From Bacteroidetes bacterium GWB2_32_14 (GTDB lineage: Bacteria > Bacteroidota > Bacteroidia > Bacteroidales > UBA12077), in NCBI GenBank assembly GCA_001768235.1, contig MENK01000001.1:306057-370056 (forward strand): DNA of 64,000 bases, given 5' to 3'. The notes below the pieces were generated by a model. The model was given only the letters and a program-made list of their open reading frames with translations, was not told the DNA's origin and ran no database searches. A program made the translations under genes and the position numbers. Below are positions 17,801-53,698 of the stretch, one piece after another; positions within the stretch are counted from its first letter, which is position 1, and each line of letters begins with the position of its first letter.

Positions 17801-18294
17801 TGCTTCCAATACGGTTTCGATTAGATAATCATATTGAGTTCGAATTATTGTTTAAGAATTTTTCGCAAAGTGTGGTAAAATATTATAATTATCAAGATTA
17901 TCAGTTCGATGATATTGTTAATAATTATGGATTTAATACGGAGAAATCGAACAACCCTTTATTTGATATTGTATTTGCATACATCAATAATAAGGGACAG
18001 GAGAACCTGCTTAAACAGATGAATATGCACCCAATTAAATTTGAAAAAGGGACTACACCATATCATCTTCTTATGAATGTGTTTGAGTTCGATAATAAAA
18101 TAGAACTGGTTCTTGAGTATGCTACTGATTTGTTTATGGAAGATACTATAGAGGAGATGTACTCAAATTATTTATTTATTATTAATCAGGTTATTAAAAA
18201 CCCTCAAATTAAACTTAAAGACATACAGCTAAAGTTTATTGGACAACAGGCAAATACTGTATTAGATAACGATTCACAAGATTATCTTCTTTAA
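8845..18294 (+). CDS. NRPS, C-T*-C-A-T-C-A-T-C (3149 aa)
   Basis: C1 HHILTDGWS (9271..). T* YFEYYNFSLK (Ser codon 10423..10425). C2 HHIISDGVS (11041..). A1 YTSGSTGQPKG/SYGPTE/YKTGD/GRIDEQVKIRGYRV. T FFEIGGDSI (13609..). C3 HHLIHDGWT (14197..). A2 YTSGTTGNPKG/NGYGPTE/YKTGD/GREDNQVKIRGNRVE. T FFDLGGHSL (16779..). Terminal C4 PHIIADGVS (17341..17361). The N-terminus (ILPLTYLQNSIF..DKYDALRTIFRWEKLKNPIQII) resembles the GrsB-type C domain that accepts a D-configured donor. Confidence 0.95.
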   Translation: MKTIDKKNVKTILPLTYLQNSIFVNSIGKKNKGLYIEQTKLKLSGVINEDIFKNTWQIIFDKYDALRTIFRWEKLKNPIQIILKKCIPEIIILDYCNYSDINEQIEKLRKNILINGLDIERQSLKIYLIKENSHSYTLLVINHHILTDGWSLGIILNEFNNIYESLTNNISFSISQSNDYCEQIKKIIDVNNLIHSDYWINYLSEISNTRAGSKTLRSNNKEIVSIDFEIDSRLEKEIEVYVKKHKLTNHTLFSSVWGTLLQTINDVDDVIFYNTVSIRDRSIGKADNSVGLFINTVPQRLKFKKDITFNDLLNYAKHDLINRSDKTNVDLGKLFVDAKINIPQFDINSLFVFENYPVETVLKKSQKDNIKRNEFIAGNSINALSDNQIKPYGIPGLEIVDYQYYSQPDYDLTLIITDFDFYKHKLFYDKKLFGEDAINQIVEKYLYFLKVAIENPYDCISEYFDINIRNLIKKEITGQDKILLDKKTKYTEDHITNTLVELWSEIFDIDIDKVSDEINYFEYYNFSLKTVHLVNRIRQLLNIDISITEVLECTTISKLAPLIRQKRVTENRALLTFSERKEHYCLSQEQLRLYYMHIVHENSTQFNAPKLFAINKKLSTDDIRYLNIIVNKIIHRHQGLRTIFKEINGEVRQVVLPASSCSTEINIEYLGYLTKLDLYHTISEDKSLKGNADKLNSLFNTYTKSFELSKFPLFRIWILQLHDESNFILIDIHHIISDGVSMYILIDEIKKIFNSLVIKPVNYYYTDYADWQRYKFLPNHVSNEINYWKNMFAKIYSPLNLPFDFEVSSSEILKGNKLYWSIEKEKYNRLLKILENNRLTLYAFFLSAYYLLFFKWLRRQDIVIGIVASKRNDKQLENLVGLLIDSYPIRIDLGVGANVSDLISIVKERLSEIYRNKGIPYHEILKIVAANDHKLKNSLINVMLNIHDYVDNEFYVNNIEISEIDFYHELPKTDISVDIMKYKETLKYGIEYNCQLFKEETILNLGNEFANIIDRLINIFEAEKYDLDLSFIFDKESQHILSKNKPSIEFNDTDFQFLEEFEMHVKQNPGKVALIFENKTDNYKTEKFTYQQVDDYSNRIANYLIDNGISNNIIIGLFIENGINRIISILGVLKSKAAFLPLDINIPKERVNYILKDSGISYIITDKELGEITGKIELLDYIKLTEYPGNRSLTLQRDANDLAYIIYTSGSTGQPKGVMVENKNMNNYIEAFLDEFMITSEDIFLQQASYSFDTYIEEVFPILSIGGELAVIPENDKRDISYVASFIQRNKITIVDCSPLMLGQLNNIPDINLLNTVRIYISGGDVLKSTQINRLFYKGEVYNSYGPTETTVCVTYYKCETIDIENQPIGKSIKNYSIILSTASNSNNVSRIGEIMVVGNGVTRGYLNNPELTHEKYISLDEIQKIRKYKTGDIGKLRDDGNIEFVGRIDEQVKIRGYRVDLIEIEQKLKSFNKINDAIVTYHEDHDSRRILSAYIVKKTGETIVVPEIRSFLQESLAEYMVPHLYYEVDEIPFTSGDKPDRQTVKKHGRAITNILESDLHELSATEKTLFEIWQTLLKHDNFNNRSNFFEIGGDSILITKAITRIRNEFSIEISYKDFYKNPTIQEIAEIINNSVTIIDEKKLEKSEYHDEAPLSFSQERIWFLQQLYENNKSYNVTRALTFKGDLNIYIFQKAIELIIEKHEIYRTVFRKNINTAYQKILPVVDCKVKMLSIDEIENKNEGINLEQWILKTGREIFDIENGPLIRFYLVQIKNNEYFFLVVEHHLIHDGWTQGLLLEEFVDIYKKLQDDSSYRPEASKLQYADFAIWQKQYFSREVLQKQMAFWKKKFDVEVPDLKLPFDNQSSSFFDGKGELLVIEVPNNLEERLKQFAISNNTTLFVVMLAAFKIELYRYSQISQICVGTGVANRIDEKLESVLGMVINTIPILTHIKDGNILVKEFIALVKESYLDSFQYANTPFEKIVEAVKPERDLRKMPLFQVLFSFMDTPTKRFELPNIEITIENSHNQTAKFDINIVIVPTHSDNNKVNDSMLIEWEYNTDLFEKSTMHEMMNNYFQLLNIMVESSQLTISDLPVHSESALKRLLYNKNEKFEPTDNGIISLFSNQVKNNKYKIALVSNDLQFSYEYLDTITSQYAKKLIKFGIQKGSIVAYLLDKDSDWIISTLAILKAGALYLPIENSLSKKQIQYILRDSEAQLVITKKQYSDLIDNFKNILFNDLLNQEVVSNFDVESIESRDLAYIMYTSGTTGNPKGVMVEHGSIVRLINNPNYVSLDNYTRLLQTGAQAFDASVFEIWGTLLNGGTLFLVNNNEILDSELLKKSIETFDINIMWLTAPLFHQHCDVNINLFKPLKQLLVGGDVLQTNKVNLFLNKNPDVKLINGYGPTENTVFTTCYKINEESKHSVSIGYPINFTGVYVVDKNLQLLPRGAEGELITTGVGLSRGYLNRPELTNEKFVKIPFRNHELAYKTGDIVRWRSNDTLEFIGREDNQVKIRGNRVEIGSIEAHINNHCNVISVVVNVVEQNGNKALVAYILTNKKLFPENIKDYLREYLPKYMIPDYIIFVKHMPLNKNGKIDKDILYKEYQLPKYEHIEADDLDIQEKEIARIWSEILSVDINAIHKNSNFFDLGGHSLNAVILISKLRDSFEFDLSVVDIFKYPDLQNFSNCITKKTSVSRARKLEKAAEQEYYELSSPQKRLYWLLQLYNDSVVYNISKVVEIQNVVDVEHLNHAFSTLIMQHESLRTSFHQVNGDVKQKIHTEFNFEIVIKNINESQVYEEIDKSIKPFDLSMHPLIRVNLLRVSEDKNILVIDLPHIIADGVSINKLLEQFTTIYKYGEIVPAKYQYRDYIVWYEKWKASNNYIEHKEFWKNIFSSPVLKLNLPTDFLTKNLSNCKGKNIYFTINQDTMLLIQNKLLAGDQTMFMFLLFNFFVLISKYSESDDLTIGCPVSGRTKHEFFDIMGLFANMLPIRFRLDNHIEFELLFKNFSQSVVKYYNYQDYQFDDIVNNYGFNTEKSNNPLFDIVFAYINNKGQENLLKQMNMHPIKFEKGTTPYHLLMNVFEFDNKIELVLEYATDLFMEDTIEEMYSNYLFIINQVIKNPQIKLKDIQLKFIGQQANTVLDNDSQDYLL
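10315..10545 (+). other. Degenerate carrier (T*) domain between two C domains, with no cognate A domain
   Basis: TLVELWSEIFDIDIDKVSDEINYFEYYNFSLKTVHLVNRIRQLL has the T-domain helix pattern. However, the GG(D/H)S core reads YNFS: the Ser is kept, GG is lost, and Phe replaces the usual Asp/His. Confidence 0.5.
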
Positions 18295-18399: not shown

Positions 18400-20100
18400 A
18401 TGATGTATAAAAATAATGATTTTAAGGTAAATGGCGTGATTTATTTGGTTCAGTTACCATTCTGGACTCCCCTAATTCCGCCACAAGGTATTGCAAAGAT
18501 AAAATCATATCTTCAATCAAATGGTTACCGCGTAAAAACTTCAGATTTGAATGTTGATTATGAAGTGAAATCAACCTATGAATCACTTTTAAAAATAATA
18601 CGAGATATAGTTCCAAAAGAGAAGTGGGGAAATTTTTATGATAACATACATGAAATAATAAAATATTCTCTTTTGTTGGTGTTAAATGAGCCTGATTATG
18701 AAAAAGCACATCCGATTTTAAAAAAGATTTTTAACTATTATTATTTAGTAGAACTAACAAAAGAAGATTCAGCAAGGATTATAAGTCTTTTAACAGAATA
18801 TTTCACGTATCTTGAGAATTCAATTGTAAGCCAGATACTTAACGATGAAGAGATATCTGTATTGGGTTTATCATTACATAGTGGTAATTTGGGATCGGGG
18901 CTCTATGTTTTAAAACGAATTAAACAAGAAAAACCATATATCAAAACGGTAATTGGAGGGAGTATTTTTATGGGTGAATTAAGAAATAATACACCAGACT
19001 TTAATCGTTTTTATAATAAAGCTGATAAATTAATTGACTATTATATTATTGGTTCAGGGGAAAGCTCATTCTTACATTTACTTAAAAATAGGTTCTCTTC
19101 AACAGAACGTGTAATTATTTCGGATCCCGCAAAAGAAGCTGTATTAGGCTTTGGTATTAAACCAGATTTAGATGATTTTGATATCAAGAAATATCCATAC
19201 ATTGCCAGCTACGTGTCTCAAAGCTGTCCCAACAAATGTAGTTTTTGTAACGAACGTACTTTTATGGGAGAGTATATCGAACGAGACATTAATAGAGTGG
19301 TTGACGAGATAGAGCATAATTCAAAATTGTATCAAAAAAATATGATTTTTATGCTTGATGTATTGATGAATAATTATATCACCCAGTTTTCAAAAGGACT
19401 AATTCAAAGAGGCCTTAATATTTTCTTTGACGGGTATATTAGAGTATCTGATCAATTAAATAATTCAGATCAAACTCAATTATGGCGTGAAGCCGGATTT
19501 TATAGAGCAAGGCTTGGAATTGAAAGCGGATCACAAAAAATACTTGATTTAATAAATAAAAATATTACAGTTGAACAAATATATAATTCATTAAAAGGGT
19601 TGGCAGGAAAAGGGATAAAAACAACAACGTACTTGGTTATTGGGCATCCTGGTGAAACAGATAATGATTTTAAAGAAACTCTGGATTTGCTTACAAGATC
19701 TCAAGAATATATTTGGCAGGCTGAACCCCATTTATTCCGGTATTTTTATACAGGCCAAAGCGATTCGGAAACGTGGGCGAAGTCCAGAATTCCACTTTAT
19801 ACCGATGAAGAGCTTGATATTCTTTTTTTTCAAACTTACAATCTGGATTTATTACCAACTCGAACAACTAGCTTAGAAAGAATTTGGAGAATGATGGAAC
19901 ATATTGAAATGAAGGGAATTGTTAATCCTTTTTCTGTGTACGATAAATTTAAAGCCGACGAGAGATGGAGTGGTTTGCATGAAAATTCAGTGCCATCAGT
20001 TGTTGAAATGGACGAAATAAGCAAGGTTACATATGGTTCAAACAAAATGAAAGATACGGTATCTACAAGGCTGGAATTTGAAGATAATTTCTTATTTTAA
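18400..20100 (+). CDS. Cobalamin-binding-domain radical SAM enzyme (class B type), copy 1
   Basis: N-terminal B12-binding-domain pattern: LPFWTPLIPPQGIAKIKSYLQSNGYRVKTSDLN, VLGLSLHSG..IKTVIGGSIF, GSGESSFLHLL. Radical SAM CX3CX2C motif as CPNKCSFC (19225..19248). ARLGIESGS motif. Ends in ..EFEDNFLF. Confidence 0.85.
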   Translation: MMYKNNDFKVNGVIYLVQLPFWTPLIPPQGIAKIKSYLQSNGYRVKTSDLNVDYEVKSTYESLLKIIRDIVPKEKWGNFYDNIHEIIKYSLLLVLNEPDYEKAHPILKKIFNYYYLVELTKEDSARIISLLTEYFTYLENSIVSQILNDEEISVLGLSLHSGNLGSGLYVLKRIKQEKPYIKTVIGGSIFMGELRNNTPDFNRFYNKADKLIDYYIIGSGESSFLHLLKNRFSSTERVIISDPAKEAVLGFGIKPDLDDFDIKKYPYIASYVSQSCPNKCSFCNERTFMGEYIERDINRVVDEIEHNSKLYQKNMIFMLDVLMNNYITQFSKGLIQRGLNIFFDGYIRVSDQLNNSDQTQLWREAGFYRARLGIESGSQKILDLINKNITVEQIYNSLKGLAGKGIKTTTYLVIGHPGETDNDFKETLDLLTRSQEYIWQAEPHLFRYFYTGQSDSETWAKSRIPLYTDEELDILFFQTYNLDLLPTRTTSLERIWRMMEHIEMKGIVNPFSVYDKFKADERWSGLHENSVPSVVEMDEISKVTYGSNKMKDTVSTRLEFEDNFLF

Positions 20101-20111
20101 AGCATGAAACT

Positions 20112-21296
20112 ATGAATAAATTTAGTGTCCCCTCTGATTTTGATATAAGTACAATTGACTATTACAAGCAACTCAATAATGAATACGAAAATTCAAAAGT
20201 TGTTGAAACATATGGAAATGTTACCAAAGAAAATATAATTGAATCTGGAAGGCCCAAGAGTGTGTTGCCTGATGTAGATTTTAAACAATTAGAAAATTAT
20301 ATTTCTTACTCGCTAAAAAGTAAAATCAATTTTAATTATACATTAAATGCAACTACACTGAATAATAAAGAATTTATTGAAGATGAAGTTGAAAACATTA
20401 TTAGATTTCTTAAACGATTAAACGATGCAGGAGTAACATCATTAACAATTGCGATGCCCTCAATGATTGAATTAGTAAATAAATCGTTCAATTGCTTTAA
20501 GATAAAAGCGTCAACATTATGCCAGATTACAAGTGCAAATAAGGCCTTAATGTTTAAAAGGCTTGGGGTTGATCGTATAGTGGTTGATGAATCGATAAAT
20601 AGAAAATTTAATAAATTAAAAAATATTCGTGAACAATTTGGACCCGATGTTGAACTTATTGCAAATGTAATATGCCATCAGGATTGTATATATCGGATGT
20701 TTCATTATAACCAGATGTCATCAATTTCTTTATCCGAAGGAAATGAAATAAGTGAATCTTATTACCCTCACCGGTGTTTGTTGCAAAGATATAATAACGT
20801 TAGTAATTTAATGAAACTTTCCTGGATAAGACCAGAAGATTTGAAGTATTATAATAATATTGGAATTACTAACTTTAAACTACAAGGACGACAAGCAGTA
20901 AAAACCAAAGGCCATCTAAAAACAATTAAACATTATTTTAATCAGAAATATGATGGAGATTTAATGGATTTATTAAATATGTACGATCCATTAAATAGCT
21001 TTAGAATATTTATAAAAAATAGCGATTTGGATGGTTTTATTAAACCTTTTGTCAGAGATGAGTATGATTTCTGTGAAAATAACTGTGAAAAATGTGGCTA
21101 TTGTCAAAAATATGCCGAAAGGATAATTGATATGAGCCATGCTAATGATATAATCCAAAAGACAAAAGAGTTTTATAATAAATTTGATCCATATTCAGAT
21201 CAGGTACAAATAGTTGGAGAAAGAGTAGGTGGAAATTATATTGAAAGTGAGATTGATGATAGAATCAATACAGAGCTTAATGATTTTAACTTGTAA
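20112..21296 (+). CDS. Peptidase-U32-like (PrtC/UbiU/TrhP superfamily) protein with extra Cys clusters, copy 1
   Basis: The start is 11 nt after the rSAM stop. U32-like pattern: alternating TIM-barrel strands (TSLTIAMPSMIELV, FKIKASTLCQI, VDRIVVDESI, VELIANVICHQDC) and FKLQGR (compare the LKIEGR of U32 proteins). Cys motifs: CHQDC..HRC and CENNCEKCGYC (21072..21104). Ends in ..ELNDFNL. Family call is by eye only. Confidence 0.5.
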   Translation: MNKFSVPSDFDISTIDYYKQLNNEYENSKVVETYGNVTKENIIESGRPKSVLPDVDFKQLENYISYSLKSKINFNYTLNATTLNNKEFIEDEVENIIRFLKRLNDAGVTSLTIAMPSMIELVNKSFNCFKIKASTLCQITSANKALMFKRLGVDRIVVDESINRKFNKLKNIREQFGPDVELIANVICHQDCIYRMFHYNQMSSISLSEGNEISESYYPHRCLLQRYNNVSNLMKLSWIRPEDLKYYNNIGITNFKLQGRQAVKTKGHLKTIKHYFNQKYDGDLMDLLNMYDPLNSFRIFIKNSDLDGFIKPFVRDEYDFCENNCEKCGYCQKYAERIIDMSHANDIIQKTKEFYNKFDPYSDQVQIVGERVGGNYIESEIDDRINTELNDFNL

Positions 21297-21393: not shown

Positions 21394-22195
21394 ATGCAAA
21401 AGGAAGGTGATTCTCTGACACTAGAAAAAAATGATTTTTTATTGAAAAAGTACTGGAGTAAAAAAATGGAAGGGGAGTATATAACCTCCATAGCACCTTC
21501 TGATTTCAAACAAGTTGATACTGATTATAAAGAGGGAATAAGAGAAATTTATTTCCCAAGTGAATTATCTGATCGGATTCTTCATATTGCAAATAATTCA
21601 GATACACGCTTGTATATAATATTACTTGCCGGTACAATGGGGTTTTATTCCAAATATACAGCAAGCAGCAATATATTGATAGGCTCTCCTATTTTTAACG
21701 AAAAAGAAAATAAGAATTTTATTAATGCATTGTTACTCTACAGATGTGAATTGAATACTAAATTATCATTTAAGAATATATTACCAGGAGTTAAAGATGA
21801 AATTTTTGAAACAGTTAAAAAGCAAAACTATCCAATTAAAAAGTTAGTAAGTAAATATGAAAATGAAAATTTTATCTCAACTAAAAAAATTGTTGATTCA
21901 ATTGTTTTGTTGGAGAACATTCATGAGTATAGTTTAATATCAGATTACAAACCTGGATTTGTTTTTTCATACAAACAAGTTGATGGCAAGCTAATTGGCA
22001 GGCTAACCTATGATTTGTCAAAATATGACCCTGAAATTATAAATGACATTATCGGGAATTTAATTTACTTCTTTAGTCAGCTTTATTTTAATACAGATAA
22101 GCCCTTAATAGATATTGATTGTATTAGGACGGAATCAAAAGAATTTCTTTTAAATAAATCTGAAGGAATATCAAGAAAACTTGAGAATACGAATA
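21394..22195 (+). other. N-terminal half condensation domain (C*): C-terminal lobe only, no catalytic His motif
   Basis: KKYWSKKMEGEY..APSDF (the YW..L..lP.D region that normally follows HHxxxDG), RLYIILLAGTMGFYSKYT, ILIGSPI, QNYPIKKLV, VLLENI, LTYDLSKYDPEII. The A domain begins immediately afterwards (WFEEIVNRFPNQIALIE). Confidence 0.6.
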
Positions 22196-36584: not shown

Positions 36585-38051
36585 ATGTTACACATACTCA
36601 ATAAAATTGATAGTTTAACGCTAACTCAGAAAGAAAAACTCTTATCTGAACTAACTTGTAAAAAGATAAATTTCAAGGGCAAGATGATTCTTGAGTACCC
36701 GCTTTATTGCACAGAGAAAAAAGAGTATTACCCTGTTTCATCAGCTCAATTTCGTGTATTTATTGCAAATCAGGTATATACATTCAATTCGGCATTTAAT
36801 AATCAACTGGCTTTTGTTTTATCAGGAGAATTCGATATAGAGAAAATACGTGAGATATTTAATAAGTTAATAACCCGGCATGAAGTTTTAAGAACCTCTT
36901 TCTTCGAAATAAAGGGACAAATATATCAGAAAGTTCATGAACACGCAGAGGTAAACTTCCAGGTAATACAGGATAACAATAAACCTTTAGAGACAATAAT
37001 TAAGGAATTTGTTAAACCTTTCGATCTTGCATTAGCACCATTGTTTCGAATAGGCGTGTGTAATATTAAAAACGACGAGGTGTTTTTAATTCTTGATATT
37101 CACCATATTATTTCTGATGCTGAATCACTTATTTTATTTACAAATGAATTTATTGAATTATATAAGAGTTATGATCTCGGTAAACATTTATATCAATACC
37201 GTGATTATGCTCAATGGGAAAACGTGATAAAGAAAAAAGTTCTTTTCATATTGCAAAAAAAATTCTGGAATGAAATTTATACACCACTTATTGATGTTAA
37301 ACTCCCATTTTTAAATAAACCAGAGCAAAAGGATTATTCGGGGGATGTATTTGAATTTTCTATTGAATTGGAAGAAAAAATAGAAATTGAAAAAATGGTT
37401 AAGTCATTAGAGCTAACACTTTTTATGTTTTTATTAGGAGCATTTGCTTTAACAATTTCTAAACTAACATACAAAAATGATATTATAATCGGTAGCCCGG
37501 TTGCTGGCAGGAGAAAAAATGAGTTTGAAAAAATAATGGGAATATTTGTAAATATGCTATCCTTCCGGTTTAAAATAAATAATCAAAATACAATTCAAGA
37601 ATTTTATAACATTATTAAAAATGATATATTGAATTGTTTCGATAATCAGGAATATCCATACGATGAGTTAGTGAAAGATTTGAACTTGAAAAAAGCTCTG
37701 TTTGATATTGTTTTTGTATTTCAAAATGCAGGAGGAAAATTAAAAAACAAAAATGTTGAAATAAATGATGATTTAGCTATTTCTCCATTCAAATTTTTTA
37801 ATAAAACATCAAAATTTGCACTTTTGCTTGAAACCTGGGAAGAAGAAAAACGATTGGGATTAAGATTTGAATATTCTACTTATTTATTCGATAAAAGCGA
37901 AATACAAAAAATGTCTGAGAATTATAAACAGGTTATTCGTACAATTATTTCCAATAAATCAATTTTTTTGTCCGAAATAGAAACTTTTAAAAAGGCAAAT
38001 ACATTTGACAAATTAGCTAACCAATCAGAAATACAAGATTTTGATTTTTAA
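36585..38051 (+). CDS. Stand-alone NRPS condensation domain protein (488 aa)
   Basis: YYPVSSAQFRVF, HEVLRTSF, DIHHIISDAES (37101..37121, Gly replaced by Ala), YRDYAQW, IIGSPVAGRRKNEFEKIMGIFVNML, NQEYPYDELV, LFDIVFVFQN. No A or T domain. Ends in ..EIQDFDF. Confidence 0.9.
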   Translation: MLHILNKIDSLTLTQKEKLLSELTCKKINFKGKMILEYPLYCTEKKEYYPVSSAQFRVFIANQVYTFNSAFNNQLAFVLSGEFDIEKIREIFNKLITRHEVLRTSFFEIKGQIYQKVHEHAEVNFQVIQDNNKPLETIIKEFVKPFDLALAPLFRIGVCNIKNDEVFLILDIHHIISDAESLILFTNEFIELYKSYDLGKHLYQYRDYAQWENVIKKKVLFILQKKFWNEIYTPLIDVKLPFLNKPEQKDYSGDVFEFSIELEEKIEIEKMVKSLELTLFMFLLGAFALTISKLTYKNDIIIGSPVAGRRKNEFEKIMGIFVNMLSFRFKINNQNTIQEFYNIIKNDILNCFDNQEYPYDELVKDLNLKKALFDIVFVFQNAGGKLKNKNVEINDDLAISPFKFFNKTSKFALLLETWEEEKRLGLRFEYSTYLFDKSEIQKMSENYKQVIRTIISNKSIFLSEIETFKKANTFDKLANQSEIQDFDF

Positions 38052-38061: not shown

Positions 38062-39756
38062 ATGAAATCCAGCGAAATAAATAATATTCTTTTCATGTTA
38101 CCTCCATTTTGGGATCCGTTAATACCTCCGCAGGGGATAGCACACATTAAAAACTATTTAAAAAAATATAACTATAATGTTAAAACCTATGATTTTAATA
38201 TTTATAAGAATTTTAGAGATATTTATACCCGATACTTCAATACATTAAAAAAATATGTACCACTCGAAAAGAGAGGTAACTTTTTCAATATTGGTCACGA
38301 TGTTCTTCGAAATCATATGTTAATCAACTTTATAAACAATCAAGATGATGAATATTATATTTTTTTAAAAGATATTATTTACAAAACCTTTTATGTACAA
38401 CTCGGAATAGAAATATTAAAAGAAGTAGATGATATTATTAATTCCTTTTATTCGATTTTTGAAAAAGAATTGAATAAGATTTTCTATCAAAATAAATTTC
38501 AAATGGTTGGAGTATCAGTTATGAGAGATAACATCGCTCCATCTCTGTTTGCCTTGAGATATATTAAAAAAATTGATCCTGCGGTAATCACTGTAATGGG
38601 AGGAAGTATTTTTTCAGATCAATTATTAATAGGAACACCCAATTTAGATTATTTTTTAAAAAATACTCCCTATTTGGATAAGGTGTTTGTTGGTGAAGGT
38701 CAAATTTTATTGCATAAGTTTTTATCAGGAGAATTGGATAACGAAAAAAAACTATTTACTCTTGATGATATCAATAGAGAAGCATTAGCCTATTCTGATT
38801 TAAATTTCCCGGATATGGATGATTTTGATGTAAAGCATAATTACATGTATCTGGCAATGAATGCATCAAATAGTTGCCCTTATAAATGTAGCTTTTGTAA
38901 TGTAGCTAATTTTTTTGGTGATTATCGCGAAAAAGATCCTGGTATGGCTGCGGCTCAAATGATGTCTTTATATCAAATTTATGGAATACGTATTTTTTTT
39001 ATGAATGACTCTTTGCTTAATAATGTGGCTGATAACCTTTCGACTGAATTGCAAAAAAATAATACTCCTTTATATTGGGACGGATACATGCGTGTTGCAG
39101 ATAATGTTTGCGATCAGAGAAATACAATTCATTGGAGAAAAGGCGGTTTGTATAGAGCAAGACTGGGAGTAGAAAGTGGTTCCAATAGAGTTTTGAAATT
39201 GATGGGAAAAAAAATCTCTATTGAGCAAACCAAAGAATCTCTGAAAAGTTTGGCAAATGCTGGCATTAAAACTACAACTTATTGGGTTATTGGTCATCCT
39301 GGCGAAACTGAAGAAGATTTTCAGTTAACCCTGAAATTGCTTGAAGAAAGTAAAACCTATATTTACGAAGCAGAATGTAATCCATTTATTTTTAGTTATT
39401 CGGGACAATCAGATTCTGAAAATTGGCATAACGATCGCAAAATTTTATATACTCATGTTCCCCAGGAAAGAATTATTATTCAAGACTGGACCAATAATAC
39501 CTACCCTTTGCGTGAAGAAACTTATGAAAGAGTGAATAGGTTTGTTCAACGTTGCAATGACCTGGAAATTCCAAACCCATATTCTTATTTCGATATTTAT
39601 AATGCAGATAACCGGTGGAAACTTCTACATCGTAATTCAGTCCCGTCTTTAGTTGATATTTATGATGGAAACATTGACCTCTTGGAATCCAGAAAAGTTG
39701 AAATTATTAATAAAATTTCTAAAATAAATATTGAAACAAACGATTTTGATTTTTAA
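38062..39756 (+). CDS. Cobalamin-binding-domain radical SAM enzyme, copy 2 (paralog of 18400..20100)
   Basis: LPPFWDPLIPPQGIAHIKNYLKKYNYNVKTYDFN, VGVSVMRDN..VITVMGGSIF, CPYKCSFC (38875..38898), ARLGVESGS. It aligns with copy 1 along its whole length. The tracked TTG at 38041 overlaps the upstream stop, so I prefer the in-frame ATG at 38062. Ends in ..ETNDFDF. Confidence 0.85.
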   Translation: MKSSEINNILFMLPPFWDPLIPPQGIAHIKNYLKKYNYNVKTYDFNIYKNFRDIYTRYFNTLKKYVPLEKRGNFFNIGHDVLRNHMLINFINNQDDEYYIFLKDIIYKTFYVQLGIEILKEVDDIINSFYSIFEKELNKIFYQNKFQMVGVSVMRDNIAPSLFALRYIKKIDPAVITVMGGSIFSDQLLIGTPNLDYFLKNTPYLDKVFVGEGQILLHKFLSGELDNEKKLFTLDDINREALAYSDLNFPDMDDFDVKHNYMYLAMNASNSCPYKCSFCNVANFFGDYREKDPGMAAAQMMSLYQIYGIRIFFMNDSLLNNVADNLSTELQKNNTPLYWDGYMRVADNVCDQRNTIHWRKGGLYRARLGVESGSNRVLKLMGKKISIEQTKESLKSLANAGIKTTTYWVIGHPGETEEDFQLTLKLLEESKTYIYEAECNPFIFSYSGQSDSENWHNDRKILYTHVPQERIIIQDWTNNTYPLREETYERVNRFVQRCNDLEIPNPYSYFDIYNADNRWKLLHRNSVPSLVDIYDGNIDLLESRKVEIINKISKINIETNDFDF

Positions 39757-39791
39757 ACTACTGCTATAAACAAGTTGTGGGCTGATTGCCC

Positions 39792-39896
39792 ATGAAACCA
39801 GAAGAACCCATTGTACATGATTTCTTGATATTTATTAACTTTAAACTTTATAACGGGGAGAAAACCCTGCTGTTTCATACTGCGAAACCGTTATAA
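39792..39896 (+). CDS. Candidate 34-aa small ORF in the 313-bp gap (very uncertain)
   Basis: My own translation: MKPEEPIVHDFLIFINFKLYNGEKTLLFHTAKPL. It is the only intergenic sORF longer than 20 aa that I found. FINFKLYNGE resembles NINIQLYNGD of the docking domain at 62316. Its stop codon lies inside the right arm of the hairpin at 39849..39895. It may be a chance ORF in AT-rich DNA or a gene remnant. Confidence 0.15.
   Translation: MKPEEPIVHDFLIFINFKLYNGEKTLLFHTAKPL
39849..39895 (+). terminator. Structured element: 8-bp outer stem enclosing short inner hairpins, followed by a T-rich tract
   Basis: TATAACGG (39849..39856) pairs with CCGTTATA (39888..39895). Inside are GGG-AGAAAA-CCC and GTTTC-ATACTGC-GAAAC. 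The downstream sequence is ATTTTATTAATATTTTTT. A weaker hairpin, TGGGC-TGATT-GCCCA, lies at 39778..39792. Confidence 0.3.
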
Positions 39897-40069
39897 TTTT
39901 ATTAATATTTTTTGAGTAGTTAATAATGATTACTCGATTCAAAACCCGACTTTCAGTTTTTTTAATCAAAAGTAATTTTAATTAAAGTAATCTTTCAACC
40001 AGTATGGAGTCTTACATTATTTTGGCAAACATCAATTTGAACAATCGTTAACAATTAATTTTTTGCGTT

Positions 40070-41239
40070 ATGATAAAATACTATAGTATTCCGGCAGATT
40101 TTTCCAAAAATACAATTGATAGCTTAGCATTATTGAATTCTAAATATTCTACATCCCAGGTTATTGAAACATACGGAAACATTACAGTTGACAATATATT
40201 TGGATCGGGCAGATCGTGTTGTCAATTGCCAGGTTTAGATATTGATTCTTTAAAAAAATATGTAGAATATTCAAGAAACAAAGGAATAGAGTTTAATTAC
40301 ACGTTTAATGCTTCATTCGTTCAAAATCAGGAGTTTACTAAAAAAGGAGTATATAAAATAAAAGAATTCATTTATAAAATACACAAAACAGGAATAAAAT
40401 CATTAACTATAGCTTTACCTCAGCTTATCGAACTTGTTAACTCAATGCAATTGGGATTTAAAATTAAAGCTTCAGCTATTTCAAGCATCGATAATGTTAA
40501 CAAAGCACTTGCATATAAATGGCTTAATGTAGATAAAATTGTAATTTGTGAGTTAATAAACAGGGATTTTCATGAATTAAGAAATATTCGTGAAGCCTTT
40601 GGTGAAAAGGTTGAGCTTATAGTTAATACACCATGTTATAAAGATTGTTCATATAGAATGCCTCATTATAATCAAATATCATGCGATTCTGTTAATGTCA
40701 CGAATGATGTGAGTTTTACTTATTTTGAACATAAGTGCATGATACGCCGATATAGTGATATTGCTAATTGGATGAAAATTAACTTTATACGCCCCGAAGA
40801 TATTAAACTTTATGAGAAAATAGGAATACAACATTTTAAACTTCAGGGCAGACAAGCAATTCTTAAAGATGGAGATATTGTAAGAACTGTTGAAGCATAT
40901 TTTCAAGAAAATTTTGATGGCAATCTCATTGATTTGATAAATCTTTTTTCAAAGTTAAATCCATTCCATGTAAATATCGATAATAAAAAATTGGAGGGTT
41001 TTATTGAACCATTTTTTAAAAATCAATCCTTTTGTAAACATAATTGCAATAAATGCAATTATTGCCGAAATTTTATATTAAAAAACCTTGATGTTGAAAG
41101 TATTCAAACTGTATGCGATATGGCACAACAGTATTATCAAAATGTTAAAACTTATGCAGATTTTATTTCAGAAGTTAATGTTTCCGATGCTCAAAGAATT
41201 TCTGTTAATAATATCGATGCTGAAGATTTTAAGTTCTAA
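40070..41239 (+). CDS. Peptidase-U32-like protein with extra Cys clusters, copy 2 (paralog of 20112..21296)
   Basis: It aligns with copy 1 throughout: IPADFSKNTID..VIETYGNIT, KSLTIALPQLIELV, FKIKASAISSI, VELIVNTPCYKDC..HKC, FKLQGRQA, CKHNCNKCNYC (41033..41065). Ends in ..AEDFKF. Confidence 0.5.
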   Translation: MIKYYSIPADFSKNTIDSLALLNSKYSTSQVIETYGNITVDNIFGSGRSCCQLPGLDIDSLKKYVEYSRNKGIEFNYTFNASFVQNQEFTKKGVYKIKEFIYKIHKTGIKSLTIALPQLIELVNSMQLGFKIKASAISSIDNVNKALAYKWLNVDKIVICELINRDFHELRNIREAFGEKVELIVNTPCYKDCSYRMPHYNQISCDSVNVTNDVSFTYFEHKCMIRRYSDIANWMKINFIRPEDIKLYEKIGIQHFKLQGRQAILKDGDIVRTVEAYFQENFDGNLIDLINLFSKLNPFHVNIDNKKLEGFIEPFFKNQSFCKHNCNKCNYCRNFILKNLDVESIQTVCDMAQQYYQNVKTYADFISEVNVSDAQRISVNNIDAEDFKF

Positions 41240-41251: not shown

Positions 41252-43393
41252 ATGTCCACCAATTTTAAATCAAACAATCAGTATAAAATAAAATGGAATG
41301 CAAGCGCCATTTTTTATGAACTTGTTGCCGACAATAATAATGAATTGCTCTTTCCAATAATCAACAGGTTGCATTTTCAGTTAAACAAATACCTTTTTTA
41401 CTACGAAAACAGTTTTTTGGATGCATTTGAGATTCAGTCGAACGAATGGCCAAATTATATAGGACTACAAGCAATTAGAAAAAATAAAGTTATAGTTAAT
41501 AGGGATTTATTTAGCTTATTGTTGCTTTTTAATGGTCAGAATAGTATTGAAACAATTTATAAAAACTTTTCGAAAAAGATAATTGAAATAATGATTATTG
41601 ACCAGGGTGAATGTAAAAAATACAAAACAACTACAAATTCCTTTTCGGGTTTTTTGCGAATTATTAAATTACTTTACAAAAACGATATTTTAAAATTAAA
41701 ATCATTAATTATAAATTCTGAGAATAGTTCAAAAGAATTAATCCAAAATTACTTCAATATTGATGAAATACTTGCAAGAAAAGAGACGCAGGCAATTGTT
41801 AAGGAGCGTATCTGCAAAGTGCCTTGTGATAATACAAATAAAGTATTACTCCTGGGCGATACTAAAGGTTCTGCAACTATAGGATTACTATATCTGGCAA
41901 GTTACATAAAGCAAAATGGTATAAATGTGAGTTGCCGGTTAAATAACTTTTCGTCGAAAGAAACATTAGAACAGGATATTAAAAATAGTATTAATAAGTT
42001 GAACCCAACTATTGTAGGGATCAGTTTAAAGTGGTTTTTACATATAGCCAGAGTGTTAGAAATAGCAAAATATATTAAAGATATTGATAAAAATATAAAA
42101 GTAGTATTAGGAGGAAATACAGCAAGTTATTATTGGAATGAAATTATTCAAAATGAAAATATAGATTATATCATATTGGGTGATGGAGAAGAACCTTTAT
42201 TAAAGTTATGTAAAAATGATACAGAAATTCCAAATTTAGTATCTAAACAGAATAATGCGGTTTTAAACACCCAAATATCATATAGACAAGGTAAAAACAA
42301 TAATAACCATATATTTCTTTCAGATCTCAATGATATTTTTATTTCACGAAAAGACCCCTACTTATCAGATTATTTATACGTAAATACTGGTAAAGGATGT
42401 GATTGGAATTGCTTTTATTGTGCAGGTTGCAGGGAAACACAGATCGTAATATTTAATAGAAGCAATGCTTTTGTCAGAGATATAAATACAATTCGAAATG
42501 ATATTCAAATATTCAAGAAAATAAATAGTACACTGATGTTCGATTTTGATATTCCCACTCAAGATGATGTGGAATTTTATAAGAATATTTGGAAGGGAAT
42601 AGATTTGTCAAGGTATTTTTGTATTTTTTTCTTTTGGGCAGTTCCATCAGATGAACTTGTTGATTTAATTCATCAGACTTTTTTCTACAGCTATCTATAT
42701 ATAGATTTACCGAGTTTTGACCAAGAGAAAAGAATGAGACTTGAAAAAGAAGGATTGACTAAAAATCAACCAACGAATGAAGAAATTATCCATTTTTGTG
42801 ATAAGTGCGAAGAATTAGAGAACATTTCTTTTGGAATTTGTACCATTTGGGGAACCCCGTATTTTTCTATTAAAGAAGCTTCTTCTTCAGAAGAAATAGT
42901 TTCAAACCTGTATAAGAATTACAATTCTTTCATAGGAGTGGAATGTATGAAATTACATGCTCAACCTGGTGCACCTATATTGCGACAGCTTGATAGGTTT
43001 GAAATGTATTCTGATGCAGATAACTATCAGCAATTTTACAATTTTAGTGTGCTAAATCATAAATTAGATAAAGAACAAAAGGATATTTACCCGTATATAA
43101 ATTTTAAAGACTCATTATTACAAAAACAGGTAAATTATTCATTACAAGATATTTCAAATAAAATTCTAAAGTCAATCGAAAATAAAAAATATCTCGATGT
43201 AATAATTGAATCCAATAAGGAAGAAATAGAAAAACTCTACAATAAGGGTATCATTAAAGGAAAAGCTGATAATATTTCTGCAGACAGTTTCAATTCTGTA
43301 GAAGATATAAAGCAAAATAATATGCTGCATGGTTTTGAAAATGACTTGTTTTTTAAATATATCATACAGAAACTTAACGGGCAAATACTCTAA
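41252..43393 (+). CDS. Cobalamin-binding-domain radical SAM enzyme with ~190-aa N-terminal extension (PqqD/RRE-like)
   Basis: B12-domain pattern: KVLLLGDTKGSATIGLLYLASYIKQNGINV, IVGISLKW, KVVLGGNTASYY, GDGEEPLLKL. Radical SAM motif CDWNCFYC (42398..42421). The N-terminal VNRDLFSLLLLFNGQNSIETIYKNFSKK..FLRIIKLLYKNDILKL resembles PqqD-family peptide-binding domains. No DFxF-type tail (ends ..LNGQIL). Confidence 0.8.
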   Translation: MSTNFKSNNQYKIKWNASAIFYELVADNNNELLFPIINRLHFQLNKYLFYYENSFLDAFEIQSNEWPNYIGLQAIRKNKVIVNRDLFSLLLLFNGQNSIETIYKNFSKKIIEIMIIDQGECKKYKTTTNSFSGFLRIIKLLYKNDILKLKSLIINSENSSKELIQNYFNIDEILARKETQAIVKERICKVPCDNTNKVLLLGDTKGSATIGLLYLASYIKQNGINVSCRLNNFSSKETLEQDIKNSINKLNPTIVGISLKWFLHIARVLEIAKYIKDIDKNIKVVLGGNTASYYWNEIIQNENIDYIILGDGEEPLLKLCKNDTEIPNLVSKQNNAVLNTQISYRQGKNNNNHIFLSDLNDIFISRKDPYLSDYLYVNTGKGCDWNCFYCAGCRETQIVIFNRSNAFVRDINTIRNDIQIFKKINSTLMFDFDIPTQDDVEFYKNIWKGIDLSRYFCIFFFWAVPSDELVDLIHQTFFYSYLYIDLPSFDQEKRMRLEKEGLTKNQPTNEEIIHFCDKCEELENISFGICTIWGTPYFSIKEASSSEEIVSNLYKNYNSFIGVECMKLHAQPGAPILRQLDRFEMYSDADNYQQFYNFSVLNHKLDKEQKDIYPYINFKDSLLQKQVNYSLQDISNKILKSIENKKYLDVIIESNKEEIEKLYNKGIIKGKADNISADSFNSVEDIKQNNMLHGFENDLFFKYIIQKLNGQIL

Positions 43394-43513: not shown

Positions 43514-44280
43514 ATGGACTATAATAATGAACAGGATTATTGGCTGGAAAAATTATCAGATACTACTGAAAGATGCAGTTTTCCTTACAATTATCTAACA
43601 AGTAATATTAAAAAAGAACTTTTGTCATTTAACATTGATTTGCCTGCAGATGTTACAAACAAGTTATTGCAAATAAGTGGCGATTCTGATTTTCGATTAT
43701 TTATACTTTTAAAAGCAGGATTATTTTTACTTCTTAACAAATACACGGGGAAGAAAAATATTATTATTGGCAGTCCTATAATGAAGCAGGAAACCGATAC
43801 AAATTTTATTAACACATATTTACCTGTAAAACTATATTTAGATGAAAACCATAGTTTTATAGAGTATTTAAATAATGTAAAAAACGAACTTATTCTTGCT
43901 ATTGATAATCAGAATTTTCCAATAGACACTATTCCCGAGTATCTCGGATTATCTAATCAAATAAAAAACCAAACATTTTTTGATATCGCTGTTTTACTGG
44001 AAGAACTTCAAGATAAAAAATATATAGAACACTTAAAGCTAGACATGATTTTCCGTTTCTCGAAAAAGAATGAAGGAATAAATTTAACTGTTGACTATAA
44101 TGGGAATTTATATAAAAAACAAACAATAGAAAGAATTATATCACATTTATCAATATTACTGGGTAATGCACTTGAAAACAAGAATAGTTTGATTGGTGCA
44201 ATTGAGTGGTATAAACCAGAAGAAAAAGAAAAGGTACTTTATCATTTTAATCAAACCGATAAGAATTATAACCTTGATAA
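43514..44280 (+). other. N-terminal half condensation domain (C*)
   Basis: EQDYWLEKLSD..FPYNY, RLFILLKAGLFLLLNKYTG, IIIGSPIMKQETDTNFIN, QNFPIDTI, FFDIAVLLEE, LTVDYNGNLYKKQTIERI. There is no HHxxxDG before the A domain starts (VLDIFKQACNINPDQ). Confidence 0.6.
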
Positions 44281-53200: not shown

Positions 53201-53698
53201 AATTCGGTTTCACAAAATCGTCATGTTGACGAATTTATTTTAGAAGTAAAAGAGAATCTTATTGATGCTATTGAAAATCAGGATTATCAATATGAAGATT
53301 TAGTAAATGATCTTTCAATAACAGAAGAAAGAGGAGTACATTCATTATTTAATGTTTCTTATGCATATAATAGTTTCGAAAGCCAGTATTTTAATAACGG
53401 GGATTTAAAAATCAGTAAATATGATTTCATAAATCTTACAAGTGATTCAAAATATGAATTAAGTTTATATGGAACACGAATTCACGAGAAATATGTATTT
53501 CAAATTCATTATCGTATTGATTTATTCAATGAAAACACTATTCGTTTTTTAAGTGAATATTTTAAAGATATCTTATTACACATCACTGAAAATAGTAGTA
53601 TGCGAGTAGGAGATATTCCATGTTTATTAAACAAAATTAATAAGAGCTCTGATACAAATATTGAGCCGGGTGACAGTTTCAATTTTTCTTCAAACTAA
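43514..53698 (+). CDS. NRPS, C*-A-T-C-A-T-C-A-T-C (3394 aa)
   Basis: A1 YTSGSTGKPKG/NLYGPTE/YKTGD. T FFEIGGHSL. C HHIICDA (46400..46420). A2 YTSGTTGQPKG/DEYGPTE/YRTGD. T FFRLGGQSF. C HHIISDE (49532..49552). A3 YTSGSTGNPKG/NLYGPTE/YCTGD. T FFELGGHSL. Terminal C HHIIADG (52727..52747). Ends in ..GDSFNFSSN. Confidence 0.95.
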   Translation: MDYNNEQDYWLEKLSDTTERCSFPYNYLTSNIKKELLSFNIDLPADVTNKLLQISGDSDFRLFILLKAGLFLLLNKYTGKKNIIIGSPIMKQETDTNFINTYLPVKLYLDENHSFIEYLNNVKNELILAIDNQNFPIDTIPEYLGLSNQIKNQTFFDIAVLLEELQDKKYIEHLKLDMIFRFSKKNEGINLTVDYNGNLYKKQTIERIISHLSILLGNALENKNSLIGAIEWYKPEEKEKVLYHFNQTDKNYNLDNTVLDIFKQACNINPDQIIVSCDDKSLSYRMLDFMSDQFAGYLQSKGVIKGDLVIIKEKPSIDFIVKLLGIVKSGGVYIPVDTQAPNERLKSIIIDCRARYFVTDESNSEISELLEENDVNIINCIGSMLEFEFKPVSITSEDIIYIIYTSGSTGKPKGVKISHRGISNMCFSYVDIFKTNFKSTASVVSNPAFDAMAFELWPNLTNGVKTCVAPENIIHDIKILVNWINTKNITTLYLPTSVAEIIMNYKTTMPSVQTLATAGDVLKEYPGNNINYEVYNLYGPTEDSVWTTIYKVPKDNIENQFPLIGKPLFNKKIFIVNNDCQLLPCGIPGEMWIGGAGIAKGYVGNNNEEKFIETPFSSTGIVYKTGDLACWHDDGNIEFIGRKDNQTKIRGFRIELDEIRVWLLKYPEINEAVVIIKEVGHEKYLCSYYTSLKNIDLDELKTHLKKYLPYYMIPNYFIKVDKFNLNRSGKIDKNVLPAPSNILIDIVKPQNDNEQKLFDIWAELLGTNDFGIDHNFFEIGGHSLRAINLISLIEDKFMVKFQFRKIFEFPTIREQAKFIETIDTEKQHEILPVEKKQFYPVSSSQNRLFLLHQMEPTAVAYNVLNYIELTDKVDVNVLKNVFNIIVDRHEAFRTSFSIIDGLLYQRIQDNVNFEIEKYLVKNGHENEMTKKFTRPFDLEKAPLFRIGYFETEKNHQFLLIDMHHIICDAVTQKNIEVEIKEIIQEKTLKPLRIQYKDYSLWQNSEGYQKKVEKQKLFWKNNFKGELPKVNLPIDFPRPKFNSFDGAVVSFTLSHEETQIIRSLTEKYKSTMFMTILGVYNIFLSKLSGDNQIIVGTPIAGRNHKDLGNISGMFINTLAIKSDIYLDTKIGEFFLATKENVINVFENQEYQFDDLVGELSLSRDTSRNPVFDVMFNMLNHLDYKDDEPDFETEQSLNHDQRPSKFDLNLTAIDYGNTVYFNFVYATLLFKPESIDRFIIFFKQIINQLNGSDDKKISDIDIVVESEKRKILDEFNNTKSDYPNLTIPQLFYEQVKISKNKIAVVDSDNSITFSELDKKSNQIANMLHHLGVNKGDIIAIMLPASVDLTIYIWGIIKSGGVFLPIDIDTPVNRLDYILSDSNAKFLVSDYQYTSNLTGTNIINVNDSNYNEYESSDIYPNITNSDILYVIYTSGTTGQPKGIKITHKNLSNYYHWVSQKTEVSNNDHILINNVFSFDLVYTQFFSALLGGAKLFLINKNEYLSGDYFTRYTEKQLITCLKMTPSLFSAIIHSKEFNNKTFYSVRSVILGGEALKIEDVKYVYNMYPDIQFIDEYGPTETTIGSVAKIIDFNDYQHIKTSTIIGKPIFNTQVYVLNVNGIKLQPFGIPGELCIGGEGVSKGYINNQELTKSKFIDNPFILGETIYRTGDLVRYLPNGNLEYIGRIDNQVKIRGYRIELHEVEKVILSHEHIKDCIVSVFNANQNNDNILCAYIVYKNRGTRLTDNEIKEYLSLYLPNYMVPVLFIEIDKKPLTLNGKVDKNALPIPDINTEMDFVAPINQIEKKLAEIWADVLAISKNQIGCKQDFFRLGGQSFKASQLTYTISKVFNVKFNLRDIFFHPTIEAQAKLISEAAPILSLNIIAPAKIKEFYDLAPAQNRMFFLQQINPKSTVYNLQYTIKLDEKFAIHSIEEVFKQLVSRHESLRTSFQLINGVPKQIIHNSVDFNIESIDLRNNAGYPVMKPFDLSKTPLFRLYYITDLSGELNLLVDSHHIISDEVSQKILFEEFHEIIANKVLNPVTIQYKDYSEWLKQPDQEIIVREQEKYWLGKLSGDLPRLNLPTDYSRPEIQNFEGASTNFLLNNNELSIINQLSKSLGLTPYMSLLGIYSILLSKLSGSEDMIIGTPFANRNDLHLQKIVGLLLNTIVLRIQPSGDKILLDYFSEIKKNVIEDLENQGYPFSDLVNKLSFQRDASRNPIFDVMFNYVDNSDVVINNENSQNIKYNDIRSLENTNLVSLIDMNESEFIHVSGVAKIDISLTAIEFNNSLMCSIEYCTKLFKKETINRFIKYFRRVINQIGENPSRKINSIELIDPAEKTKLLSIFNDTNEAYSKNKRIIDIFEEQVKKTPDKVALISSNNFLTYKQVNSFSNQIARKIQERGIKHENIVGVYLDRSVEMIISILGILKSGAGYLPISTSDPIERVNYYIGDSKIDVLITDRENEIQEIKASVLLINDKSIREYDDSNVENNSNSNSLAYVIYTSGSTGNPKGVVIENHSVINRIEWMKRTLDFTAKDIFLQKTTFTFDVSVWEIFGWFFAGASLHVIQPNHEKDPKALILYIEKNKITIIHFVPSMLEAFITYLESLNNFNTNSLKCICTSGEELKPDQVSRLGKILSDSNKIKLINLYGPTEATVDVTYFQCQFNEFYHNVPIGKPISNTQIYILDYSRQQLQPIGVAGELCIGGVNLARGYIGKTQLTKEKFIDNPFFPSEKIYCTGDIARWLPDGNIEFLGRIDNQVKIRGFRIELSEIENCLLQHEAIKECVVVAREKQNEKYLCAYVRIAGNKLEIDFKSLLTDKLPAYMIPSHFMVLDNFPLTSSGKIDRKALPEPEIEFTRDYVAPENEIDVKLANIWADILGLRQSEISTNANFFELGGHSLKAIELSSKIRKQFKIEIEIATILKKPILTQLSREIQNMENNRLVSIRPIEKKEYYPLSSAQHRMYLMHCIKPESVIYNISQTYLIEGEVNINVMNAALDKIIQKHECLRISFNIINDIPVQRINYKLIKKVQYIEYFENDINDFIQGLIKPFDFKEPSLFRIYLIKRDLNKYIVFFDIHHIIADGISLKKLSEEFLKLIAGQEITKSYVQYKDFVFWQKAQRETDRYQKQKQYWNGLLQNKPIKLNLPYDLQKVASPQNLSAINTFECNVELSDKIKETIKRLNITPYQFFLSVFNILLSNICDQEEVLVGTAMAGRNHSDLDEVIGMFVNMLLVVNSVSQNRHVDEFILEVKENLIDAIENQDYQYEDLVNDLSITEERGVHSLFNVSYAYNSFESQYFNNGDLKISKYDFINLTSDSKYELSLYGTRIHEKYVFQIHYRIDLFNENTIRFLSEYFKDILLHITENSSMRVGDIPCLLNKINKSSDTNIEPGDSFNFSSN

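Follow-up and report, generated by a model that had tools for sequence, protein, structure and literature searches.

How nonribosomal peptide synthetase (NRPS) assembly lines are ordered is decided by the docking of their subunits, which also offers the principal means of re-engineering. The known NRPS docking elements comprise COM, PAX, the pair of short linear motif (SLiM) and βHD domain, and the PCP-like adaptor of tomaymycin, all of which act at junctions between a carrier domain and a condensation (C) domain (PMC9113145, PMC11186497). The present analysis concerns a tail found at several protein C-termini in a 64 kb stretch of DNA from Bacteroidetes bacterium GWB2_32_14 (contig MENK01000001.1, positions 306,057 to 370,056; called the window below), which has 29% GC, carries every gene on the + strand and is filled by one hybrid NRPS/polyketide synthase (PKS) cluster, as found with Pfam and with phmmer using window domains as queries. 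Seven proteins of this cluster end in a short acidic-aromatic tail, and three window junctions have the order protein ending in a full C domain – (free radical SAM (rSAM) and U32 enzymes) – protein starting with C*-A-T, where C* is a half C domain, A an adenylation domain and T a carrier domain. The preferred reading, given a probability of about 0.7, is that the tail functions as a motif for docking or recruitment and that its address is the C*-A-T module.

The SLiM-βHD pair, known from rhabdopeptide Kj12, tubulysin, epothilone and enacyloxin, resembles the tail in its logic: one subunit ends in a disordered motif shorter than 15 residues, which recruits a folded element at the N-terminus of the next subunit, and one motif type can serve several partners, tailoring enzymes included (PMC9113145). 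The tail is likewise short and disordered, being a 7-residue segment behind a linker of 20–45 amino acids (aa) for which AlphaFold2 (AF2) gives a predicted local distance difference test (pLDDT) below 50, and a further shared trait is likely β-strand addition with acidic and hydrophobic faces. The two differ in position, since known SLiMs follow carriers (also oxidases and Cy domains), whereas this tail never does (0/26); in partner, since the βHD is an αββαα domain of ~60–70 aa, for which C*, starting within 26 residues of the N-terminus, leaves no room; and in junction, which is T‖C between modules for SLiM-βHD and C‖A inside a module for tail and C*. COM (helix-hand) and PAX also order NRPS subunits, but they are helical, work at E/T‖C junctions and have no counterpart shared by tailoring enzymes (PMC9113145); neither is similar to the tail in sequence or in position. 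In the searchable literature, with subscription literature lying outside this scope, neither the tail nor an association of U32, rSAM and C* was found described, and the tail is most likely a docking tag not yet described.

The C-termini of the seven window proteins (Table 1) read exactly as in a preliminary description made from the sequence alone; the identical final gattttgatttttaa of the stand-alone C protein and rSAM-2 and the differing ends of the four carrier-terminated synthases in the window also stand as described there. Two of its counts have to be changed. The tail-bearing proteins were assigned to four unrelated families, and there are three, namely the C domain, the B12-binding rSAM and the U32-like Fe-S proteins, the NRPS-terminal C domains and the stand-alone C domain forming one family; rSAM-1/2 and U32-like-1/2 are paralog pairs. 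In addition, the set of proteins ending in C was said to be exactly three, and a fourth was found in ORF 74-2815 (ORF, open reading frame), which ends without a tail and fits the rule nonetheless, because the next synthetase, o8845, does not start with C*-A-T. As a separate observation, ORF 74-2815 contains an internal SDFEY 13 residues upstream of its end, and o8845 opens with an unusual C-T without an A domain.

When the proposed enrichment check was run on the 21 complete ORFs of the window, an exact [DN][FY]x[FL] terminus was seen in 6 against 0.05 expected. The per-position frequency of the pattern in the window proteome is 0.0025, compared with 0.0023 calculated from composition, and the binomial P is about 1e-11, a value that is inflated by the post hoc choice of the pattern and by the separate counting of paralogs and is still very small at three independent families.

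Conservation of the tail in homologs was scored with one general regular expression. Among the 120 best database homologs of U32-like-1, mostly about 45–55% identical, nearly all end in acidic-F-[DEN]-[FLI] with 0–2 residues beyond, and 92 match the expression; the sources include Marinifilaceae, Aminicenantes, Acidobacteriota, Caulobacteraceae, Clostridia and Paenibacillus. Their alignment shows that the folded part, with an invariant Cys cluster in it, stops near residue 360 and is followed by a non-conserved linker of 20–45 aa and then by the tail. Similarly, the tail is present in 106 of 120 rSAM-1 homologs, with the consensus Q-[ED]-[ED]-G-D-F-x-F-COOH. For the C domain, a search of a library of 1.8 billion proteins with the stand-alone C protein was dominated by mega-NRPSs, and use was made only of the 14 in which the best C domain lies at the C-terminus, one of them truncated and excluded; among the 13 unrelated, complete mega-NRPSs ending in C, 11–12 have an F-x-F tail (..IAFNF, ..WDFRF, ..TNFEF, ..TAFQF, ..AQFDF, ..GDYDFG, ..HEFEFE, ..DDFSF, ..GDFEF, ..TAFSF, ..DDDFEFDDIF), and two of these also start with C*. 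The closest relative of the cluster, from the Marinifilaceae metagenome-assembled genome JBGRQA010000018.1 (loci L001 and L043 of the survey below; U32-1 70% and rSAM-1 64% identical), keeps the orthologous tails (..SMDFRL, ..NNFLF, ..DEFNF, ..DDFDF, ..DDFDF, ..ADFDF), while the linkers diverge.

Aligned on the Phe, the three families have a common profile, Φ(-4) [DE](-3) [IVAG](-2) [DE](-1) F(0) [DNE](+1) [FLI](+2), where Φ is a hydrophobic residue, and the overall consensus is Φ-[D/E]-[Φ or G/polar]-[D/E]-F-[D/N/E]-[F/L/I] with 0–3 more residues to the C-terminus, placed after a variable linker. The tail is thus a conserved short linear motif in three unrelated families, and the check on orthologs that had been suggested came out in its favour, with the tails kept and the linker ahead variable. 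By comparison, the background is low: the tail was found in 6 of 477 unrelated ORFs of at least 200 aa in the fetched loci and in none of 26 carrier-terminated synthases. These data bear directly on an explanation by composition or chance, in which AT-rich codons and inheritance within paralog pairs would have produced the resemblance. F, N, D and L are indeed common at 29% GC, and the seven tails represent three independent families; against this stand the terminal enrichment, the background rates and the retention of the tail at about 50% and 40% overall identity in many phyla, where the linker before it is not kept. This explanation is rejected on enrichment, background rate and homolog conservation, its probability being negligible, and the caveat on AT-rich codon usage attached to the preliminary description falls away with the low background rate and the conservation in homologs of many phyla.

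To which partner the tail is addressed can be approached through its genomic company. A total of 79 loci (L001–L079) were fetched around U32 homologs, and their ORFs and domains were mapped. The tail was seen on U32 proteins, rSAM proteins, stand-alone C proteins, and NRPS and KS-T-C proteins ending in C (KS, ketosynthase). U32 proteins carry it in 35 of 45 cases in loci with C* and in 2 of 46 without (p = 8e-14), and rSAM proteins in 16 of 26 with C* and in 1 of 22 without (p = 4e-5); at the level of loci, the table of tail against C* reads 33/6/3/37 (Fisher p = 9e-13, 79 loci), and in three of the six loci with C* and no tail, the motif is present with a longer extension behind it. In every case the first domain is C*; among the 40-odd proteins scored, it starts 2–26 residues from the N-terminus with few exceptions, which are truncated alignments. 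No other protein family was enriched in the tail-bearing loci, the apparent hits being antisense ORFs inside NRPS genes. The earlier statement that tail-bearing genes lie upstream of a C*-A-T protein holds in the form that the tail is confined to proteins acting in trans on a C*-A-T module.

Because the first loci were all chosen through U32, a second sampling independent of U32 was made with an alignment of type-I C* sequences. It was found that in L087–L092 a KS-T-C protein (..DEDFGDI) is directly followed by C*-A-A-T-C-A-T-C (..EIHFNF), and that L098–L100, from Paenibacillus oenotherae, P. plantiphilus and Marinicrinis sediminis, encode C*-A-T-C proteins ending in ..LDIDFDL or ..IDFDF; the next protein is C*-A-A-T in L098 and L099; for the A-A-T protein that lies downstream in L100, a C* was not detected. 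Neither U32 nor rSAM was found within 10 kb of L087–L092 and L098–L100. The core pair is therefore a tailed C-terminated subunit together with C*-A-T, and U32 and rSAM proteins are clients that use the same tail and cannot be its receptor. The genera of L098–L100 are not known as strict anaerobes, so that, with no U32 or rSAM nearby, the docking pair reaches beyond an anaerobe-specific tailoring set. Other routes to such loci gave little: the locus search with o53837 as query returned only two generic NRPS loci, and a profile search with the C* alignment only 4 short proteins.

The description of C* as a half-domain is borne out by both Pfam range and fold. C* covers only positions 188–456 of the Pfam Condensation model and starts at the YWxxKL element that opens the C-terminal lobe; the N-lobe with HHxxxDG is absent, which leaves a single lobe of about 245 aa. 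It is also about 20 residues shorter than regular C-lobes, ~6 aa being gone, against the window's own regular C-lobes, before the C5-like F[IV]NT motif and 10–12 aa some 75 residues further on, where the second deletion is taken to be the latch region. In the AF2 model of the o43514 C*, with a predicted template modelling score (pTM) of 0.77 and a core pLDDT of 85–95, the C-lobe begins at residue 2. Foldseek matched this model to the C-lobes of C domains (TycC 2jgp, Txo1, LgrA) at template modelling (TM) scores of 0.70–0.75 and to the glycopeptide X-domain at 0.70–0.71, including the X-domain/OxyB complex 4tx3, and the top matches all belong to the C-domain superfamily.

Several relatives of such a domain have been described. 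In Lys2-type proteins, an N-terminal truncated C domain ('ADA'), a remnant of the C-lobe before the A domain, is regarded as a support of the A domain. Since C* aligns to positions 2–222 of the Lys2 α-aminoadipate reductase model TIGR03443, it belongs with these 'ADA'-like truncated C domains that precede A domains. Synthetases split inside a module are known to function, and polymyxin PmxA/PmxB is one with a split of this kind; neither a docking role nor a cognate tail is described for Lys2 'ADA' or for PmxA/PmxB-type splits in the searchable literature. Siderophore NRPSs have an 'interface' domain that, in work of Reitz et al. from 2019, reportedly partners stand-alone β-hydroxylases. The glycopeptide X-domain, which recruits Oxy P450s (4tx3/4tx2), offers a further parallel, in that a dead member of the C superfamily serves as a platform for tailoring in trans. 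Both of these domains are two-lobed and rely on domain–domain recognition without a peptide common to the clients, whereas C* is single-lobed and its clients share a tail with the trans C domain.

Evidence for a specific partner also comes from sequence subtypes. Tails fall into two classes by residue -2, either hydrophobic (type I, ..IDIDFDL) or Gly/polar (type II, ..ETGDFDF; in the window ..NDFDF and ..QDFDF), and C* domains into types with or without the F[IV]NT element. Tail class is associated with C* type (odds ratio 7.2, p = 1e-4, with a crude typing of both), and it is seen in each of U32 and rSAM taken alone; in addition, tails of different families in one locus are more alike than tails of the same family elsewhere. 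For instance, in L010 the rSAM beside a type II C* ends in ..DNEEFDF and the rSAM beside a type I C* in ..LYVSFNL, both being matched pairs. Such co-variation is the pattern predicted by a shared, co-evolving receptor. The same locus encodes, at 12500–13282, a free-standing C* of 260 aa with a tail of its own, ..DTEDDDFEF, between a tailed rSAM and a tailed rSAM plus C*-A-T-C protein, which suggests that C* and tail can be used as an adaptor or in a daisy chain. Natural fusions were also found: L008, L041 and L031 have the architecture C*-X-rSAM-A-T, whereas L025 and L070 have C*-A(rSAM)A-T; with rSAM fused inside the C*-A-T module, the enzyme is tied to the carrier of that module.

It could be asked whether the tail serves sorting, assembly or turnover and has nothing to do with the NRPS module, for example as a cargo peptide for a compartment, as a protease or chaperone tag, or through mutual binding of the tailoring enzymes. 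When unrelated enzymes of one pathway have a terminal peptide in common, this is typical of peptides for encapsulation or targeting, and the receptor of the tail is so far a putative one. Nevertheless, no shell protein, encapsulin or other family is enriched in the tail-bearing loci save NRPS parts, the tails on C-terminated subunits without U32 or rSAM exclude those enzymes as receptor, and the strict link to a downstream C*-A-T together with the subtype co-variation is unexpected for a generic tag, so that an explanation of this kind appears very unlikely.

For the docking reading, the following mechanism can be proposed. Some modules would be split internally, the catalytic C domain ending the upstream protein or standing free and C*-A-T opening the downstream protein. 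Through the tail, the trans C domain would then be tethered to C*-A-T, while C* would support the A domain and offer a docking surface; the alternating hydrophobic and acidic residues probably form an amphipathic β-strand, and contact might be made by β-strand addition near the supposedly shortened latch. The same tail would have been acquired independently by the U32-like and B12-rSAM enzymes, which could use the shared address to reach the aminoacyl-S-carrier before condensation. With the C domain split off and one tail for all clients, the catalysts could exchange on one carrier and one docking site. The odds that the receptor is C* itself, and not A, T or the interface of C* and A, are put at roughly even. 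A wider proposal, equally balanced between holding and failing, is a general, hitherto unrecognised NRPS docking code in which a tail of the form Φ-D-Φ-D-F-D-Φ-COOH would be read by an N-terminal C* at intramodule C‖A splits in many phyla, with at least two co-varying specificity classes, and would have been adopted convergently by U32 and B12-rSAM candidates that time-share one aminoacyl thioester.

The main competitor keeps the docking function and moves the receptor to other parts of the downstream module, either its A domain, its carrier domain or the C*-A interface; the tail of C subunits would then imitate, or be left over from, the cis C-A linker segment (..N-x-T-x-x-[DE]-[YF]-P..), which as a rule packs on the A domain. 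In MAFFT alignments the terminal tails lie ~21 residues past the last C-domain helix, which is the position of [DE]-Y-P in internal C-A linkers, and the cis linkers of the loci have D/E-Y-P/S at the tail position; AF2, moreover, did not dock the tail on isolated C*. What speaks against it is that C*-A-T proteins retain a complete cis linker (FN.T..DY..), which should fill the A-domain site, and that the tail consensus Φ-D-Φ-D-F-D-Φ is unlike the linker consensus, the motif being found in 4 of 64 internal cis C→A linkers against at least 25 of 58 termini. Furthermore, it is the presence of C*, not of A-T alone, that separates tail-bearing from tail-less contexts, and it is with the C* sequence subtype that the tail subtype co-varies. 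This alternative is considered unlikely.

Several observations weigh against docking of the tail on C* and have to be set beside this evidence. In C proteins the distance between C domain and tail equals that of the [DE]-Y-P element in cis linkers, so that the binding site could lie on the A domain. The motif tolerates 1–10 extra residues, and a free carboxylate is therefore not required. Binding to C* is deduced from sequence patterns. In an AF2 fusion of C* (o43514) with the linker and tail of U32-2, linker and tail had pLDDT below 50 and the tail stayed undocked, a weak negative, as the alignment was shallow (19 rows of window chimeras and four database proteins) and tails were unpaired with their cognate C*; when C* (o53837) was fused to the U32-1 tail and modelled from a single sequence, the pLDDT was 38, too low to be of use. 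The co-occurrence and co-variation statistics are not phylogenetically corrected. In L030, L058 and L060, C*-A-T is present and the U32 protein has no tail; some C* loci contain C-terminated proteins without a tail (e.g., ..KNKLK in L002, L006 and L007); and the U32 and rSAM proteins without a tail may simply come from different clades and pathways. Taken together, the docking motif first proposed in the preliminary description is well supported by conservation, the link with C*, the junctions free of tailoring enzymes and the subtype co-variation, while the modelled docking on C* did not come about.

A specific receptor had been suggested in that description, namely an N-terminal 'RRE-like' domain of rSAM-3 (41252), by analogy with leader recognition in peptides that are made by ribosomes and modified after translation (RiPPs). 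rSAM-3 is alone in lacking a tail while having an extra N-terminal region of ~200 aa (41252–41866), and the tail, in our view, resembles the FNLD/FDLD (F-N/D-L-D) box of class I lanthipeptide leaders. The N-terminal (X) domain of rSAM-3 (residues ~17–155, nucleotides ~41300–41716) has its homolog in C*-X-rSAM-A-T proteins, where it is the insert that separates C* from the rSAM core. It has no Pfam match, RRE/PqqD included, and no similarity to C*; at default thresholds no window protein gave a PqqD/RRE Pfam hit, and none came from the three rSAM N-terminal regions at E values up to 10, where other Pfam families gave no match either. Within the 79 U32-centred loci and the window, homologs of the X domain occur only in L043, L031, L008 (~12040–12470), L041 and the window, the four loci including three C*-X-rSAM-A-T fusions, whereas tails occur in more than 36 loci. 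With so few tail-bearing loci containing it, the X domain is not a general receptor; the RRE suggestion, rejected for want of Pfam or profile support and for the rarity of the domain among tail-bearing loci, is extremely improbable. rSAM-3 probably associates through its X domain instead of a tail, and the X domain may be an alternative docking device.

C-terminal tails that act as hubs are well known elsewhere, as in EEVD–TPR of Hsp70/Hsp90, the DDDIPF tip of SSB, class II PDZ ligands (Φ-x-Φ-COOH) and the FNLD box–RRE pair of lanthipeptides. The likeness is one of analogy only, in that an acidic stretch with an aromatic or hydrophobic end lets unrelated proteins converge on one receptor; no TPR, PDZ, OB or RRE receptor fold was detected in the cluster.

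The client enzymes can be placed in part by their domains. U32-like-1 and U32-like-2 score 42.6 and 26.6 bits against PF01136 (gathering cut-off 22.4), with a weak TrhP match, and their family has the invariant residues C188, C192, C222, C321, C325, C328 and C331. The U32 family is tied to prephenate-dependent, O2-independent hydroxylation, its function being itself still inferred in vivo (PMC10990095). The U32-like proteins are accordingly to be named only as candidate O2-independent, prephenate-dependent hydroxylases of the UbiU/V, RlhA and TrhP group. The window rSAM proteins have PF04055 scores of 73.9 and 62.9 bits and CxxxCxxC at residues 276, 279 and 383; for the B12-binding PF02310, rSAM-3 (58.7) lies above the cut-off and rSAM-1 and rSAM-2 (26–28) below it (32.1). 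Their best NCBIfam similarities are to PhpK-type and RiPP C-methyltransferases, all under the cut-offs, and they are candidate C-methyltransferases, most like P- and C-methyltransferases.

The features of the window are listed in Table 1. Between the first two NRPS genes, at 2902–8552, lie genes for a NACHT/STAND-like P-loop ATPase (weak, under the Pfam cut-off), a protein like thioredoxin and a permease of the MacB/FtsX type, which may have a role in regulation, resistance or export. The products of five consecutive genes at 31832–36580 are an oxidoreductase (GFO/IDH/MocA), a kinase (ROK), a dehydroquinase (type II), an aminotransferase (DegT/DnrJ) and a phosphatase (HAD); the genes resemble the RifL/N/J/K/M-type kanosamine/aminoshikimate (AHBA-like) set, and they may supply an amino-aromatic starter or be linked to a shikimate/prephenate demand of U32. 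The gap between rSAM-2 and U32-like-2 (39757–40069) measures 313 nucleotides, unusually long for a tightly packed operon, and holds only ORFs of 36–42 aa.

Table 1. Tails, C* half-domains and genes of the cluster, in window positions (KR, ketoreductase; AT, acyltransferase; ACP, acyl carrier protein)
Feature	Position	Strand	Remarks
Tail DSQDYLL of NRPS o8845	18271..18291	+	C-terminus read
Tail FEDNFLF (..EFEDNFLF) of rSAM-1	20077..20097	+	C-terminus read
Tail ELNDFNL of U32-like-1	21273..21293	+	C-terminus read
Tail EIQDFDF of stand-alone C	38028..38048	+	C-terminus read
Tail ETNDFDF of rSAM-2	39733..39753	+	C-terminus read
Tail DAEDFKF of U32-like-2	41216..41236	+	C-terminus read
Degenerate tail GDSFNFSSN of o43514	53669..53695	+	S at -1, motif three residues before end
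C* of o21394	21394..22179	+	C-lobe only; putative receptor for three upstream tails
C* of o43514	43514..44254	+	Putative receptor for tails of stand-alone C, rSAM-2 and U32-2
C* of o53837	53846..54616	+	C-lobe only
ORF 74-2815	74-2815	+	..A-T-C; first in order; ends ..DLNILFE
NRPS o8845	8845-18294	+	C-T-C-A-T-C-A-T-C, C domain at end
rSAM-1	18400-20100	+	B12-binding radical SAM protein, CxxxCxxC at residue 276
U32-like-1	20112-21296	+	PF01136, conserved Cys cluster
o21394	starts 21394	+	C*-A-T-C-A-T; then PKS (KS-AT-KR-ACP)
Stand-alone C domain protein	36585-38051	+	
rSAM-2	38041-39756	+	ATG at 38062 may be true start
U32-like-2	40070-41239	+	
rSAM-3	41252..43393	+	713 aa, B12-rSAM, without tail
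o43514	starts 43514	+	C*-A-T-C-A-T-C-A-T-C, C domain at end
o53837		+	C*-A-T; likely ATG start 53846; then second PKS, start of another NRPS

If the docking reading is true, engineering would gain a new and very compact part in a portable tail of seven residues, which directs tailoring enzymes as well as a trans C domain to a defined acceptor module, and the assembly of synthetases split inside a module would be explained. It would also provide a sequence rule that predicts which module is modified by free-standing rSAM and U32 enzymes in uncharacterised clusters of anaerobes. Finally, the largely uncharacterised U32 family would be linked to the tailoring of natural products, and the O2-independent hydroxylation of carrier-bound amino acids would become testable.

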